From IMG/VR virus record IMGVR_UViG_3300045118_000414: DNA of 64,000 bases; one strand, given 5' to 3'. Each line of letters starts with the position of its first letter. The stretch's first letter is position 1. The notes beneath the pieces are model-generated. The model ran no database searches. It saw only the letters and a program-made list of their open reading frames with translations, and was not told the DNA's origin. The translations under genes and the position numbers were made by a program. The DNA comes from a virus (lineage: Duplodnaviria > Heunggongvirae > Uroviricota > Caudoviricetes). Of this stretch, positions 38,880 through 55,542 are shown one piece after another.

Positions 38880-39068
38880 TCATGAATTTCTAAATACTCT
38901 TACTCCTGTATCATATTCATCTTCAGTAATTTCTATATGATAAAGCATTACCGTATTTTTGCCTAGTTTGTGTTCTACACATATAAAATCGCTTAAGCTG
39001 CCGCGTATAAAAGCGGTCTTCAATTTAGCATATGGAGATCTTTTAATTGTAGCCATATAGTATTTCAT
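38880..39068 (-). CDS. small hypothetical protein
   Basis: ORF track. Confidence 0.3.
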   Translation of the reverse strand: MKYYMATIKRSPYAKLKTAFIRGSLSDFICVEHKLGKNTVMLYHIEITEDEYDTGVRVFRNS

Positions 39069-39484
39069 AGTACTCCTGCCATTACTAATGTGCGTTTTAG
39101 ATTTTGTGATATATATTCATCAGCAACCCTTGGATAAATATACTTAAATGCGTTAACCTCGGGAAATGGAGGTTTGTCTGGAAGATTTACCATCGACGTA
39201 CATTTCATATAATCGATATTAGGTAACGGCTCAACAGTGATCTTGAATAAATAGAGATCTTTGGCCGGTAAATATGTAAACTGTCCAAGTTCCTCGATTA
39301 CAGCTGTCTCTGGTACATCATAGTTAGTTTCTTCTTTGACCTCACGAATGCACGCTTCAAGAAAATTCTCATTAGGATCAACACCACCTTTGGGAATATC
39401 CCAAATTTTCTGTCCTGTTGCGTGGCATACAAGAAACACGGTGCCATCAGTGATAATGGCACCGGCAGATATTTTCTTAGGCAT
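39065..39484 (-). CDS. NUDIX hydrolase
   Basis: Nudix box GGVDPNENFLEACIREVKEETN. Confidence 0.8.
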   Translation of the reverse strand: MPKKISAGAIITDGTVFLVCHATGQKIWDIPKGGVDPNENFLEACIREVKEETNYDVPETAVIEELGQFTYLPAKDLYLFKITVEPLPNIDYMKCTSMVNLPDKPPFPEVNAFKYIYPRVADEYISQNLKRTLVMAGVL

Positions 39485-39884
39485 TTTCGTTCAGAATCTT
39501 CACTATAGCTCGAGATCGCTCAAGTAACGTTTTTCCAGTATAATTGGCTTCTTGTAATATATGAAAAACACGAAATTCTTCTGGATTAAGTGTATCTGCA
39601 TTAAATTCATCCATCCAGTCAAGTTTCGCCTGAACAAGGTCGATTTCCCTCTCTAACCGCTCAAGTTCCTCTTTTAGTTCATCTCTAGTAACTATCGCTA
39701 GTTCGCAGTCCGTACTGAGTAAAGTATTTCCAATTGTACCGGTTACTGGGTCTTTTGCTGAAAATGTACAGACCGCACCCATAGATATTGGATGTGTATA
39801 CACTTCATATGTTTTGCCGAGTTCATAGTTATGACTATTACTATTTTTGCGAGGAACGATCTTTGATCCTAATTTTATATTCAT
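39477..39884 (-). CDS. hypothetical coiled-coil protein
   Basis: ORF track. Confidence 0.4.
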   Translation of the reverse strand: MNIKLGSKIVPRKNSNSHNYELGKTYEVYTHPISMGAVCTFSAKDPVTGTIGNTLLSTDCELAIVTRDELKEELERLEREIDLVQAKLDWMDEFNADTLNPEEFRVFHILQEANYTGKTLLERSRAIVKILNENA

Positions 39885-40954
39885 TTTGGTATCACCTGAT
39901 GTAAGAGTTTTTTGTATGCTTCCGCGTCGAGCTGCCGGCCGTCTAATAATGTAAACACAAATCCCGCACGGCTGGTTTTGCCGTAGGCTTGTGTAATCTT
40001 TAACGCGGCTTCTTTTCGAGACAGTAATTTACAATCATTCGCAAATACTTTCATATGCTCGACTATTTTTTCAACTTCCTTATTGGCATCACATAATCTT
40101 GAAATGTCTCCTTTAGCTATTTCAGCGCATTCAAAATCATATGTATTGGCAATATAATTATAAAAATCTTGGTACTTGGGTCTACCATAAAGTGTATAGG
40201 CTTCCAATAAATTATTTATACTGAGATCGCTTTTAAATGCGTGCACAGCCAAATATTTATCGCCTTTGATCTTTTTTATGTGTTGATCCAAATCATAGTA
40301 TAAACAGACCCCCTCCTTACCATCGAATCTTTGTACCTCCTCTAATAAATGCTCTACAGATTCAAAAGTAAAAGATGCAGGCCTTTCAACGCCAAGCTGA
40401 CGAGCTATGAGGTCCAATGAAGCTTGAGTGTATAAACTATAGTCTTCGTGCCTTATTATACCTACTAAGAACAATCGCGGAGTTTTTCCTAAATCCAATA
40501 CAATTTTATTTTTTGGACTATACCATTCAAATATACGGGTGCATGTTTCATCAGAAAAATCAAATGCCTTGGGAAACTCTTTTTTGAAAAACTTGATTTC
40601 ATCAAAATTCTCAAAAATATCGGCATTAAATGTACCTCGTGTACGTATGATAAGTTGTCCTTTGTAAGGAGTTACTATTAATGCACTACCGTCGATCTTC
40701 TCTACAGCCGTAGTATTGATTAAACTCTGCGGAGGCGGTACTAAATTATCTTTTTCATTCCAATTAAAAAACTTTGGAAAGCTGGGGCTAACTAAATAAC
40801 CGTCTTCGGTCCAGATAGAACTTCGAAATATCAGGTTCATCTTGTCCCAAGCACACCCCTGATACTGTGGTGTTATTAATACTAATCTTTCCCCGTACTC
40901 ATTAGAGTATTTTTTAATGAAGTCTTTGTTCTCGATAAGTAACGTAGCTTTCAT
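39881..40954 (-). CDS. ATP-dependent RNA ligase, T4 Rnl1 family
   Basis: KFFNWNE...VEKIDGSA (motif I KxDGS) ~ T4 Rnl1 KFFNLNE...TKEDGSL; C-terminal EGVCLYYDLDQHIKKIKGDKY ~ [20 protein letters not shown]. Confidence 0.8.
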   Translation of the reverse strand: MKATLLIENKDFIKKYSNEYGERLVLITPQYQGCAWDKMNLIFRSSIWTEDGYLVSPSFPKFFNWNEKDNLVPPPQSLINTTAVEKIDGSALIVTPYKGQLIIRTRGTFNADIFENFDEIKFFKKEFPKAFDFSDETCTRIFEWYSPKNKIVLDLGKTPRLFLVGIIRHEDYSLYTQASLDLIARQLGVERPASFTFESVEHLLEEVQRFDGKEGVCLYYDLDQHIKKIKGDKYLAVHAFKSDLSINNLLEAYTLYGRPKYQDFYNYIANTYDFECAEIAKGDISRLCDANKEVEKIVEHMKVFANDCKLLSRKEAALKITQAYGKTSRAGFVFTLLDGRQLDAEAYKKLLHQVIPK

Positions 40955-53495: not shown

Positions 53496-53849
53496 TTATT
53501 TTACTGTTGTGTAATAAGCCGCTACTGCTATCGGTTCCGGTGTTTGTTCATCGAAAAATAAGCGATGCGTAGTTCCGTGTGTATCGACATTGGTAAAACA
53601 TACTTCACCATTATCGACCATATCGGTCATCGCCTGACTTATTTGATATTGCTTTACAAAGTAACCGGTCGATCGTAACTGCTTTTTAATTTGTAGGGTA
53701 GTAACAAACCCCTGTTTTTCAATCAATTCCAGTGCTGTATCATGTATAACTTCATCATTCACTGGTACACAAAGAGCGCTTCCAACTTGTTTCAGTTGCC
53801 CGGCACGTTGTAACGTGGCGAGTGCTGCTGCTAAAGCTTTGTTTGACAT
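53496..53849 (-). CDS. hypothetical protein
   Basis: ORF track. Confidence 0.35.
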   Translation of the reverse strand: MSNKALAAALATLQRAGQLKQVGSALCVPVNDEVIHDTALELIEKQGFVTTLQIKKQLRSTGYFVKQYQISQAMTDMVDNGEVCFTNVDTHGTTHRLFFDEQTPEPIAVAAYYTTVK

Positions 53850-54016
53850 ATTATTTTTCCCATATTATAAATGAAAACCAGATAAGGATTAAAATCAATT
53901 GCAGTACATTACCAACTGTTGTCAAAATCCCTCTGGACTTGAAAGGGCCTTTACTATTAAGAATAACCATGTCGGTATAAAGGCTATAAGTACCGCCACG
54001 ATTTGTTTTAAGAATT

Positions 54017-54307
54017 TCATTTTACACCGAGAATACGTGCGACGGTATCTTGGAAGTTAACAATAAATTTCCTGTAATTTGCTGGAGTAAGTATTGAATC
54101 CAAATTCTCGTTTTCTATACGGTCGTCAATTTCGAGTTTCGCCGTAGCCAACAGTTTTCGTTTAAATTCATCGCTTTGTAAATATTCGTTTAAGCCGGCT
54201 AAAATACGATCAGCATTTTTCTTTATAACAGTGTTGATAATTTTATCCGCATTCTCTCGGACTTTCTGATCGACTAATACTTGTAATGCAGGTGTTAGCT
54301 TTTTCAT
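54017..54307 (-). CDS. hypothetical protein
   Basis: ORF track. Confidence 0.35.
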   Translation of the reverse strand: MKKLTPALQVLVDQKVRENADKIINTVIKKNADRILAGLNEYLQSDEFKRKLLATAKLEIDDRIENENLDSILTPANYRKFIVNFQDTVARILGVK

Positions 54308-55542
54308 CCTTTTACCTTTATTAGATATCGAATAGTTAGTTGTTCTTCCTGGTATACTATAAACTCATTGTTTCTTAGATCAGCCCCGCCTAGAGCGGTA
54401 AGACTATCATAATCTCCGCGTTCACGTAATTTCTTATGAGTTAATTCAGACTGCCAATGCTCGTGACGTCGTACAGTTAATGTATTGCCCATATGAAATT
54501 CAAATAATCCTAAGAATGCCGTGTTTTGATTACCACGTGCCCAATAAGAATTATTACCAGACGTATATCCAAATGACTTTTGGAATTTGTCCGCACCATA
54601 TATACCGTACCCAAACATCTTGCCAGTTATTACGGCGTTCGTAGGTCGTACCAGTAATCCTGTTTGCAATATACTCCACCAATTTTCATTACGTGACCCA
54701 TGCCAATACAGTTCTGTGGTTTTATTTTTGGAACTCGCGAGATTTTTAGCATACTTATCAGCTGAGGAAGTATGCACAATTTCATAAGCAGTTAAAAGTC
54801 TGTTGGCGTCGTTACCCATAGCCTTTAGAATTTTCTGCTCTGTTTGTTTGTCTTCAACGAGTTTGCATTCAACACCGATGGCGTCCAAAATTGTATAATT
54901 GGATTTAGTGGTTTGTATAGTTGCAGCCTGTGCGGACACTTGACCGGCCATAACGTCCAATGTATCTTGCTCTGCGGTTATAAAATTCTGTAGTCGTAAT
55001 TTCATTTGTGGATTTGTGTCTTTGTATAGAATATGATCTTTTACATTAGACATACGACGTGGAATAACTCCGTATAACAGTATTAATTTTTCATTGACTT
55101 CATCTGCGTCAACCGAACATTTATTCACAAATATCGTGAGTTCGTTCATAATTTTTTGCGCTTCATTTACTTGTGCTTGTGTGACAACTTTTGCATCAAC
55201 CGTATAATTATCATCGATCGATTTATTTGCGTAACCCTGTAACAGAGTTACGAGCGCATTAATATTTCCGTCGGAAATTGTAAGTAGTTTTGAAGTAGTA
55301 GTTGGTTTTATAAATAAATGCGATTGATCTGTGTAACCCTTTTTTACCTTTTCATTAAACTTACTATTCCACTGTTTTATCGGGTAAGTCTGATTAGACG
55401 TTGTGACACCGATACGCCCCCATGTGGCGGTAAATGTACCGTCATCATTATCATGCATATCGTAATATTTATTATTATTGTCAGTCGTAACCATTACCAA
55501 ATGTTTGTCAGCGTTCATCTTGATGGGGGTTGTACTAAGCAT
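54304..55542 (-). CDS. poly(ADP-ribose) polymerase-like protein (WGR domain + regulatory helical + PARP catalytic domain)
   Basis: WGR: DDGTFTATWGRIGVTTSNQ; catalytic: LYWHGSRNENWWSILQTGLLVRPTNAVITGKMFGYGIYGADKFQKS ~ PARP1 [46 protein letters not shown]. Confidence 0.85.
   Translation of the reverse strand: MLSTTPIKMNADKHLVMVTTDNNNKYYDMHDNDDGTFTATWGRIGVTTSNQTYPIKQWNSKFNEKVKKGYTDQSHLFIKPTTTSKLLTISDGNINALVTLLQGYANKSIDDNYTVDAKVVTQAQVNEAQKIMNELTIFVNKCSVDADEVNEKLILLYGVIPRRMSNVKDHILYKDTNPQMKLRLQNFITAEQDTLDVMAGQVSAQAATIQTTKSNYTILDAIGVECKLVEDKQTEQKILKAMGNDANRLLTAYEIVHTSSADKYAKNLASSKNKTTELYWHGSRNENWWSILQTGLLVRPTNAVITGKMFGYGIYGADKFQKSFGYTSGNNSYWARGNQNTAFLGLFEFHMGNTLTVRRHEHWQSELTHKKLRERGDYDSLTALGGADLRNNEFIVYQEEQLTIRYLIKVKG

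Follow-up and report, generated by a model that had tools for sequence, protein, structure and literature searches.

Can a phage that is predicted both to consume nicotinamide adenine dinucleotide (NAD+) and to salvage its breakdown products run a closed NAD+ cycle of its own? The question is raised by a 64,000-nucleotide stretch of tailed phage DNA (Caudoviricetes; IMG/VR record IMGVR_UViG_3300045118_000414), referred to here as the window. An earlier note on this DNA had grouped four of its genes as one NAD+ set: a NUDIX hydrolase (39065..39484), a PncA-like nicotinamidase (44679..45560), the NAD+ synthetase NadE (52646..53494) and a PARP (54304..55542). All four open reading frames (ORFs) were found at these coordinates on the minus strand, their identities held, and the catalytic motifs were intact in each, so that no gene of the set appears to have been lost by decay of its catalytic residues. 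The genes do not form a single operon; the set spans 16.5 kb and is interrupted by about 30 other ORFs. Judged from sequence, PncA, NadE and PARP are intact NAD+-related enzymes, the NUDIX protein probably stands outside the NAD+ set, and the closed cycle is only partly supported. Whether PncA and NadE raise the capacity for NAD+ recycling during infection we consider to be evenly balanced.

The PncA-like protein (293 aa, minus strand) is a divergent nicotinamidase and the weakest of the four identifications by database score. It is extended at the N-terminus by about 36 aa and has about 48 additional residues in the stretch from H86 to W148. Among sequences of the PDB it nevertheless matched nicotinamidases only, whether the query was the single sequence or a family profile. 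Its AlphaFold model (pLDDT 73.7, pTM 0.71) gave the same answer, as Foldseek ranks 1 to 10 were all nicotinamidases (E 4e-7 to 6e-5, target-normalised TM about 0.6). Residues D42, K185 and C231 align with the D10, K94 and C133 triad of P. horikoshii PncA, and D84, H86 and H151 align with the metal ligands D52, H54 and H71 of 1im5; triad and metal ligands were unchanged across 30 homologues. The metal-binding Asp-x-His...His site, which sets nicotinamidases apart from other isochorismatase-like amidases, is thus present. Homologues number 868 and are labelled 'nicotinamidase-related amidase' by the Joint Genome Institute. We infer that the protein would catalyse the first salvage step, from nicotinamide to nicotinate.

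The PncA-like gene heads a cassette of four genes on the minus strand. The end of its reading frame shares 4 bp with the beginning of a vWA gene (44017..44682, 221 aa; phrog_7371), the first gene of a trio. The vWA protein has a weak Pfam VWA match (19.8 bits) and a metal ion-dependent adhesion site (MIDAS) formed by D36, S40, T100 and D136. It is followed by a PP2C-family protein phosphatase (43126..43833, 235 aa; Pfam PP2C_2, 36.4 bits), in which the metal-binding aspartates are conserved, and by a Ser/Thr-kinase-like protein (41426..43129, 567 aa) with the G-loop G15-G18, K31, D128, N133 and D146. The window kinase-like protein has no Pfam match of its own, and its homologues in contigs L018 and L020 have precomputed PF00069 Pkinase matches. 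Beyond the kinase core a CPVC zinc-ribbon-like motif occurs at residue 284, and about 280 aa make up a C-terminal domain without a known fold. Homologues show no variation in the MIDAS, in the PP2C aspartates, or in the G-loop, lysine and catalytic aspartates of the kinase. This is the architecture of a TerY-P triad, in which a vWA protein with a MIDAS, a PP2C phosphatase and a Ser/Thr kinase share one operon. The vWA and PP2C genes are 183 nt apart, and a hairpin of 11 pairs, 8 of them G-C (43982..44008, minus strand), was recovered from this gap in a consensus scan; it may serve the cassette as an internal attenuator or terminator.

The linkage of the nicotinamidase to the trio was conserved. 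Homologues of PncA at 51-80% identity were found in eleven IMG/VR contigs, in GenBank MT837596 and in several metagenomic contigs, and every relative with a downstream flank kept the order and strand PncA, vWA, PP2C, kinase. The trio lies downstream of PncA in all ten IMG/VR loci that have a flank, the sequence of L016 stopping directly after PncA, and the arrangement recurs in MT837596, L018/L019, L020/L021, L106 and L108. Three huge phages (460-595 kb) have the module in part, with a PncA of just 33% identity. One homologue alone was indexed in 787 blocks of the assembly collection, and the module is thus very common in gut metagenomes. It also occurs as a stand-alone module in bacterial-looking contigs, whose source metagenome-assembled genomes are named Lachnospiraceae and where its neighbours are chemotaxis, two-component and GGDEF genes. 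In L018/L019 a NADAR-DarT1-family gene (4754-5395) lies about 5 kb upstream of the stand-alone cassette, beside a GGDEF protein, which may be coincidence. In L020 (10001-15712; ENA ERZ14499256 NODE_181) the cassette belongs to a small temperate phage and is found in its early region, among genes for a helix-turn-helix repressor, ORF6N, SSB and RecT, and a 212-aa RNA ligase and a Gad2-family (anti-Gabija) gene are inserted between PP2C and kinase. Downstream, at 2.5 kb, follows a metallo-beta-lactamase with a faint Apyc1 signal.

NadE (282 aa, minus strand) was identified with far higher scores. It matched Pfam NAD_synthase (PF02540) at 205 bits and TIGR00552 at 182 bits (cutoff 63.65), contains the P-loop S47-GGLDS, and matched PDB synthetase domains at E 1e-39. 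It is of the single-domain, NH3-dependent type: the CN-hydrolase glutaminase domain is missing, and the protein aligns just with the C-terminal synthetase domains of 5kha, 3n05 and 4f4h. Canonical NadE proteins scored 108-139 bits against it and the Francisella enzyme 3fiu, of the NMN synthetase type, a weaker 62.6 bits; a preference for nicotinic acid adenine dinucleotide (NaAD) over nicotinic acid mononucleotide (NaMN) does not follow from these scores. NadE would carry out the final Preiss-Handler step. The gene is present in all sister contigs at 46-51% identity, compared with 60-80% for the neighbouring genes, and is therefore either evolving faster than these or has been replaced. It occurs together with the PncA cassette in the window, in L007, L106 and L108, and in sister contigs of 215,066 bp and 61,957 bp. 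In phages at large NadE is rare (24 of 50,697 records), and a pattern scan for it across viral contigs found none.

The PARP gene encodes a 412-aa protein (minus strand) with a WGR domain (PF05406, 28 bits, cutoff 22), a helical region and a PARP catalytic domain (PF00644, 79.9 bits), and matches phrog_23333 at 180.9 bits. Residues H281, Y315 and E393 align with the PARP1/2 motifs. In phmmer comparisons residues 120-328 align with the PARP1 fragment that comprises the helical and ADP-ribosyltransferase domains, with residues 120-220 corresponding to the helical subdomain, although the Pfam PARP_reg model found no match in the ORF. The protein is predicted to consume NAD+ and release nicotinamide. 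PARP and NadE are 0.8 kb apart with two small ORFs of unassigned function between them, orf96 (54017-54307) and orf117 (53496-53849), both on the minus strand and neither with a Pfam, PHROG or PADLOC match. Homologues of orf117 (49-64% identity) lie beside NadE in L007 and L106-L108. The possibility that the small ORFs near PARP hide a degenerate macrodomain was rejected by the macro HMM (hidden Markov model) and by hhalign.

Comparison with other phages supports a real link of these genes to NAD+ salvage. In L012 (IMGVR_UViG_3300033146_002139, 10001-20900) the PncA cassette is split by a 7-kb insertion that contains NadE (204 bits) directly followed by PncB (NAPRTase, 221 bits). Also within the insertion are genes for an AP2-domain protein, a C5 cytosine methyltransferase and a 543-aa protein whose N-terminal part is DFP/CoaB-like, as well as unassigned ORFs of 237, 84 and 202 aa; NadD was not recognized among them. 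The huge phage LR756500.1 has a NadE-like gene as well, at a distance of 3.3 kb upstream of its PncA homologue. In three lineages, then, PncA homologues have NadE as a neighbour, in some cases together with PncB, and because NadE is so rare in phages this recurrent linkage is unlikely to have arisen by chance. Two other PARP phages have a Preiss-Handler set that is complete or nearly so. L076 (IMGVR_UViG_3300045988_148852, 2113-5189) encodes a canonical PncA (182 aa, 108 bits), a 584-aa fusion of CTP_transf_like and NAPRTase domains, and NadE. In the fusion a full PncB is attached to a nucleotidyltransferase with the HIGH motif (GCFIPFHTGH...SGTMIR), and the three genes would therefore provide four activities and the full route from nicotinamide to NAD+. 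They lie about 4.8 kb upstream of a macrodomain gene paired with PARP (Macro-PARP), with RlaP and the Macro-PARP pair downstream of them. In L077 NadE, a CTP_transf_like protein and PncB lie about 7 kb upstream of Macro-PARP.

The reading that we favour is that the phage would boost deamidated (Preiss-Handler) salvage at both ends. Nicotinamide would be supplied by the phage PARP and by any NADase defence of the host; the nicotinamidase would turn it into nicotinate, and NadE would amidate NaAD to NAD+. For the intervening PncB and NadD steps the phage would depend on its host or on genes in the roughly 130 kb that lie beyond the window and its flanks. The net effect would be to keep NAD+ available during infection and to clear nicotinamide, a product inhibitor of PARP-type enzymes. 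The trio might regulate the nicotinamide-removal step by phosphorylation, or couple nicotinamide removal to a signal. The size of the genome follows from metagenomic contigs of 214.5-215.2 kb, found in several samples, that carry the exact window proteins; the source is thus a gut jumbo phage with a genome of about 215 kb. In ENA contig ERZ27250193:k141_197835 the window takes up approximately positions 6.4-70.4 kb. Its phage genes are closely packed, mostly on the minus strand, at 36-40% G+C, and by megablast the region had no match among GenBank phages.

The NUDIX gene fits this scheme poorly. It encodes a small Nudix hydrolase (139 aa, minus strand; Pfam NUDIX PF00293, 54.5 bits) with the box G33-x5-E39-x7-R47-E48-x2-E51-E52, in which replacement of the final Gly by Asn is the sole change. 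It lies within an RNA-repair cassette recognized by Pfam, in the order PNKP (37312-38172), RlaP (38160-38876), orf62, NUDIX, orf135 and an Rnl1-like ligase (39881-40954), and this arrangement, NUDIX included, is kept in L007, L107 and L108. The best PDB relatives of the protein are the Ap4A hydrolase 3i7u and Dcp2 decapping enzymes, with NudE at just 22.6 bits. The best NCBIfam scores were for the Nudix half of NadM-Nudix (34 bits) and then RppH (30 bits), all far under the cutoffs. Y71 and P73 follow the Nudix box at 16 and 18 residues; a proline downstream of the box is what we take to be a marker of ADP-ribose pyrophosphatases. When the PncA cassette, PARP, NadE, NUDIX and small neighbours were compared with PADLOC, NUDIX alone gave a match, a weak one to a candidate family. 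The earlier suggestion that the enzyme processes ADP-ribose or NAD-derived nucleotides is not borne out by its company or its nearest solved relatives, which are not ADP-ribose pyrophosphatases. Its substrate is ambiguous and a role on ADP-ribose is possible, although not indicated; most likely it is an RNA-end or dinucleotide pyrophosphatase of the RNA-repair cassette, and it probably lies outside the NAD+ set.

A number of results weigh against the recycling scheme. The route runs from nicotinamide through nicotinate (PncA), NaMN (PncB) and NaAD (NadD) to NAD+ (NadE), so that PncB and NadD are needed between the two phage enzymes. A Pfam scan of every window ORF of at least about 100 aa found no NAPRTase, CTP_transf_like/NMNAT, NAMPT, PnuC or phosphoribosyl pyrophosphate synthetase (Prs) domain. 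Precomputed annotation of the flanks, about 10 kb past the 3' edge and about 8 kb past the 5' edge, listed a lysis cassette and hypothetical genes and no NAD+ genes. Searches of window and flanks by tblastn with phage PncB (L012, L076) and NadD-like (L076, L077) queries returned nothing, for NadD-like at E<=10, and a regular expression for the HIGH motif of NadD/NMNAT had no hit. The ORF that overlaps the NadE stop codon, orf192, was considered as NadD-like and rejected: it has a C-terminal zinc-ribbon pattern and no HIGH motif, Pfam, PHROG or NCBIfam match. Pfam domains of the three experimentally validated phage routes, NARP1 (Adps and Namat), NARP2 (Nampt and Nmnat) and NARP3 (PnuC and a NadR-like protein; PMC13464706), were found in none of the scanned window ORFs or annotated flanks. 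In a weak test that reached beyond the flanks, none of the best 120 of 7,986 matches to the L012 PncB lay on the same contig of about 215 kb. The search for PncB, NadD, NadM or NAMPT homologues in window and flanks was thus negative, and the claim of a closed NAD+ cycle does not stand for the part of the genome covered. The nicotinamidase itself scored below cutoff with Pfam Isochorismatase (PF00857; 22.7 bits, cutoff 27) and with NCBIfam PncA (PRK11609; 43.9 bits in two stretches, cutoff 174). These low scores are attributable to the N-terminal extension and to the insertion of about 48 residues, which splits the match. Furthermore, pLDDT in its model falls below 50 at residues 141-158 and 185-207, near part of the active site.

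The usual company of phage PARPs points the same way. In a comparison set of 67 viral contigs with PARP relatives, a macrodomain gene of about 145 aa directly precedes PARP in 53, and no NAD+ synthesis genes are close to PARP in those phages. These Macro-PARP pairs sit among genes of DNA replication and repair (DnaG, Pol III alpha, DnaB, a PD-(D/E)XK nuclease, ERCC4, ThyX and NrdD). NadE is found within 10 kb of PARP at three of the 67 loci and PncA at one. The window has no macrodomain, as no ORF matched the macro HMM and hhalign probabilities were below 1%. Within the clade, sister contig L106 is missing PARP exactly between the homologues of orf152 and orf117 and keeps NadE and the PncA cassette. 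L107 keeps NadE and has lost the PncA cassette as a unit, fragments of vWA and PP2C remaining. PARP, PncA and NadE are thus not an obligate unit. In addition, NadE and PncB are not nearby in the bacterial-looking contigs with the PncA cassette, so the primary role of the cassette may not be salvage. As one set, the genes stand in part: PncA recurs beside NadE, with PncB or without it, but PARP and the PncA cassette are lost independently and NadE seldom accompanies PARP.

Much of this evidence could also be accommodated if the four genes were independent passengers of a dense accessory region, their proximity reflecting clade synteny and not a pathway. NUDIX would then act in RNA repair, PARP as a host-takeover or break-responsive ADP-ribosyltransferase, NadE as a stand-alone auxiliary metabolic gene, and PncA in a separate signalling or conflict cassette. 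The region from 37 to 56 kb is a clade-conserved minus-strand accessory block in which RNA-repair and NAD+ enzymes are mixed, and the spread of the genes among some 30 unrelated ORFs, the independent presence and absence of PARP and the PncA cassette, the preference of PARP for macrodomain and replication genes, and the fixed place of NUDIX beside the RNA-repair enzymes are all as expected for passengers. Synteny within a clade would not, however, bring PncA and NadE together in three lineages, with or without PncB, nor place full Preiss-Handler sets near Macro-PARP in L076 and L077, and we hold this explanation to be possible though doubtful. A more novel proposal is that the insertion-bearing nicotinamidase, vWA protein, phosphatase and kinase make up an undescribed mobile four-gene nicotinamide/NAD+ module. 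Its phospho-switch would gate nicotinamide removal, either driving NAD+ resynthesis against NADase immunity or withholding nicotinamide from competitors that rely on NARP1 or NARP2. We offer this tentatively and regard it as unlikely.

The same four genes might instead be a mobile conflict module, serving defence, superinfection exclusion or anti-defence, with the nicotinamidase as an effector gated by the phospho-switch. It could starve the Namat step of a rival's NARP1 or the Nampt step of NARP2, or remove nicotinamide as a signal or inhibitor. The cassette is invariant, is gained and lost as a unit, keeps the catalytic residues of all four proteins, and is found in bacterial-looking contigs, beside a Gad2-family gene in the early region of a temperate phage, and in jumbo and huge phages. 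It shares the TerY-P architecture, and a TerY-P-like module has been reported as a stand-alone defence system (PMC11090510). Against this, none of the four proteins matched PADLOC-DB at E<=0.01, neither a nuclease nor any other toxic effector accompanies the cassette, and the NadE and PncB genes hosted by the L012 cassette point to NAD+ synthesis and not to nicotinamide deprivation. The PADLOC models presumably include the published TerY-P system. We consider a conflict module rather improbable.

A last explanation would centre on NAD+ and ADP-ribose in a vault-like ribonucleoprotein built from PARP, a protein like the major vault protein (MVP) and a Ro60/TROVE-vWA protein, with PncA and NadE servicing NAD+ turnover. 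The window does hold three classes of vault component. These are the MVP-like protein (4840-7320, minus strand, 826 aa; MVP_shoulder 93.9 bits, with MVP structures matching over residues 320-786), the Ro60/TROVE-vWA protein (32609-34399, minus strand; Pfam TROVE) and PARP. A 2026 preprint (10.64898/2026.05.01.722283) reports NAD+ and ADP-ribose to be central to vaults, with NADase activity in the vault protein TEP1 and binding of both molecules by the MVP shoulder. The genes are, however, 20-47 kb apart, and among 8 viral contigs with an MVP relative just the sister phage was also in the PARP set, so that co-occurrence at contig level was not supported beyond it. By Pfam the Ro60 protein has no TIR-like or DUF4062 domain, and no vWA or MVP-interaction region was detected in PARP. 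To this explanation we give hardly any credence. Recycling of NAD+ through PncA and NadE, with the missing steps supplied from elsewhere, is the reading that we retain.

A scan for sigma-70 promoters gave 78 matches, no more than the shuffled expectation of 79.2, and is no guide to transcription units or operon structure. Of the closest strong terminator-like hairpins on the minus strand, one (57048-57026) lies upstream of the PARP block and the other (44008-43982) is the hairpin of the vWA/PP2C gap described above. An Rfam scan of the window found a single tRNA-Ala (35656-35729, minus strand), which lies 1.3 kb from the Ro60/TROVE-vWA gene, and no Y RNA at the gathering threshold.

Further genes of the window and its relatives deserve mention. 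A DUF7831 protein (51307-51723, minus strand) and a ligase of the PHA02142 type with OB and RNA_ligase domains (48053-49144, minus strand) always lie within about 1-2 kb after NadE in the window, L007 and L106-L108. A ClpP protease sits between the NAD+ genes. Conflict or chaperone genes are found within 13740-17745, 25879-30184 and 47446-48060, all on the minus strand. Besides ClpP, these are a bpMoxR AAA+ ATPase (157 bits), next to which two unannotated proteins (425 and 211 aa) are encoded, a double AAA+ protein resembling ClpB and a DUF5906/NS1-type helicase. An SPFH/Band_7 protein is encoded at 59226-60185 (minus strand). On the plus strand, opposite to most genes, an ORF of 2026 aa (18408-24488) encodes a fused beta-beta' RNA polymerase with Rpb2 domains 3 and 6 and Rpb1 domains 1-5. 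A reverse transcriptase (RVT_1, 73.7 bits; 10127-11143, minus strand) lies upstream of the MVP-like gene, and the two are likewise adjacent in L023. Near it are a weak radical-SAM-like ORF (8703-9605, minus strand) and a zinc-ribbon-rich ORF (7852-8691). The first phage MVPs were described, from the human gut, in a 2023 preprint. About 4-5 kb past the 3' edge of the window, a 105-aa product (L022, 5798-6115) has a precomputed Pfam match to Mito_carr (mitochondrial carrier), an unusual assignment in a phage genome.

NAD+ depletion is a major bacterial strategy against phages, and three phage routes that rebuild NAD+ have been validated. If phages do use the deamidated Preiss-Handler branch, partially in the window and completely in relatives near Macro-PARP, this would be a fourth metabolic counter-strategy, and one that would connect the phage's own NAD+ consumption by PARP with recycling. 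The coupling of a nicotinamidase to the trio would provide a handle on what TerY-P-like triads sense or control. The concept has precedents. Iyer et al. 2021 (PMC7824862) treated the synthesis of NAD+ by jumbo phages as an answer to its restriction by the host, and also discussed phage PARPs and the processing of ADP-ribose by Nudix proteins. Li et al. 2024 in Microbiome (PMC11662467) described 'NAD-jumbo phages' of the gut that encode Preiss-Handler or salvage pathways, for example a pncB-nadD-nadE cluster in Kuafu_71, and in which PARP is one of the NAD+-consuming enzymes; phage pncA is mentioned as well. Since jumbo phages that combine Preiss-Handler enzymes with PARP were described there, the novelty of the locus is weakened: the earlier note's view of it as a different enzyme combination survives in relation to NARP1-3, but the idea as such was already in Li et al. 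2024. Three features appear to be new. These are an insertion-bearing nicotinamidase subfamily strictly tied to a TerY-P-like trio, from bacterial-looking contigs to diverse phages; complete nicotinamide-starting Preiss-Handler operons beside Macro-PARP pairs, including a NadD-like::PncB fusion; and a clade in which NadE is constant and PARP and the PncA cassette are gained or lost as independent modules.

Among known systems, the NAD-jumbo phages (PMC11662467) are the closest in kind, as they are likewise gut jumbo phages with Preiss-Handler genes, PARP and the same counter-defence rationale. That class is defined by a complete pathway and its role is a proposed one, whereas the window shows the first and last steps only, and the PncA-vWA-PP2C-kinase cassette is not described there. 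NARP1-3 resemble the proposed scheme in that phage enzymes rebuild NAD+ from breakdown products or precursors when the host pool is depleted. They work through amidated intermediates (nicotinamide, nicotinamide mononucleotide and nicotinamide riboside), while the window set, incomplete on its own, would use the deamidated branch of nicotinate and NaAD. Phage PARPs of Cellulophaga phages phi4:1 and phi17:2 and Xanthomonas phage XacN1, proposed to ADP-ribosylate host proteins (PMC7824862), have the same WGR-PARP architecture at 24-32% identity. Where the related viral contigs mostly place a macrodomain 'eraser' before PARP, the window PARP has NadE 0.8 kb downstream instead. The TerY-P triad, as summarized in PMC11090510 from Anantharaman et al. 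2012 and Gao et al. 2020, consists of vWA/TerY, PP2C and a zinc-ribbon Ser/Thr kinase. The phage cassette shares with it the three domain types, an intact MIDAS, a kinase followed by a CxxC motif, mobility and conflict-type contexts. It differs in that vWA comes first and is preceded by a nicotinamidase, and in having no linked restriction or Ter genes and no PADLOC match; our literature search turned up no paper linking TerY with an isochorismatase.

The bacterial and yeast nicotinamidases (PncA and Pnc1; PDB 1im5, 2wta, 2h0r and 3pl1) share with the phage protein the fold, the Asp-Lys-Cys triad and the Asp-His-His metal site. At about 17-21% identity to these, the phage protein is longer (293 aa, compared with 180-216 aa), has the N-terminal extension and the extra residues past the metal-site His, falls under the curated HMM cutoffs, and is always linked to the signalling trio. 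In yeast, Pnc1 removes nicotinamide and thereby relieves inhibition of the NAD+-consuming Sir2. By analogy, the pairing of PARP with PncA that we propose for the phage may resemble the relation of Sir2 with Pnc1.

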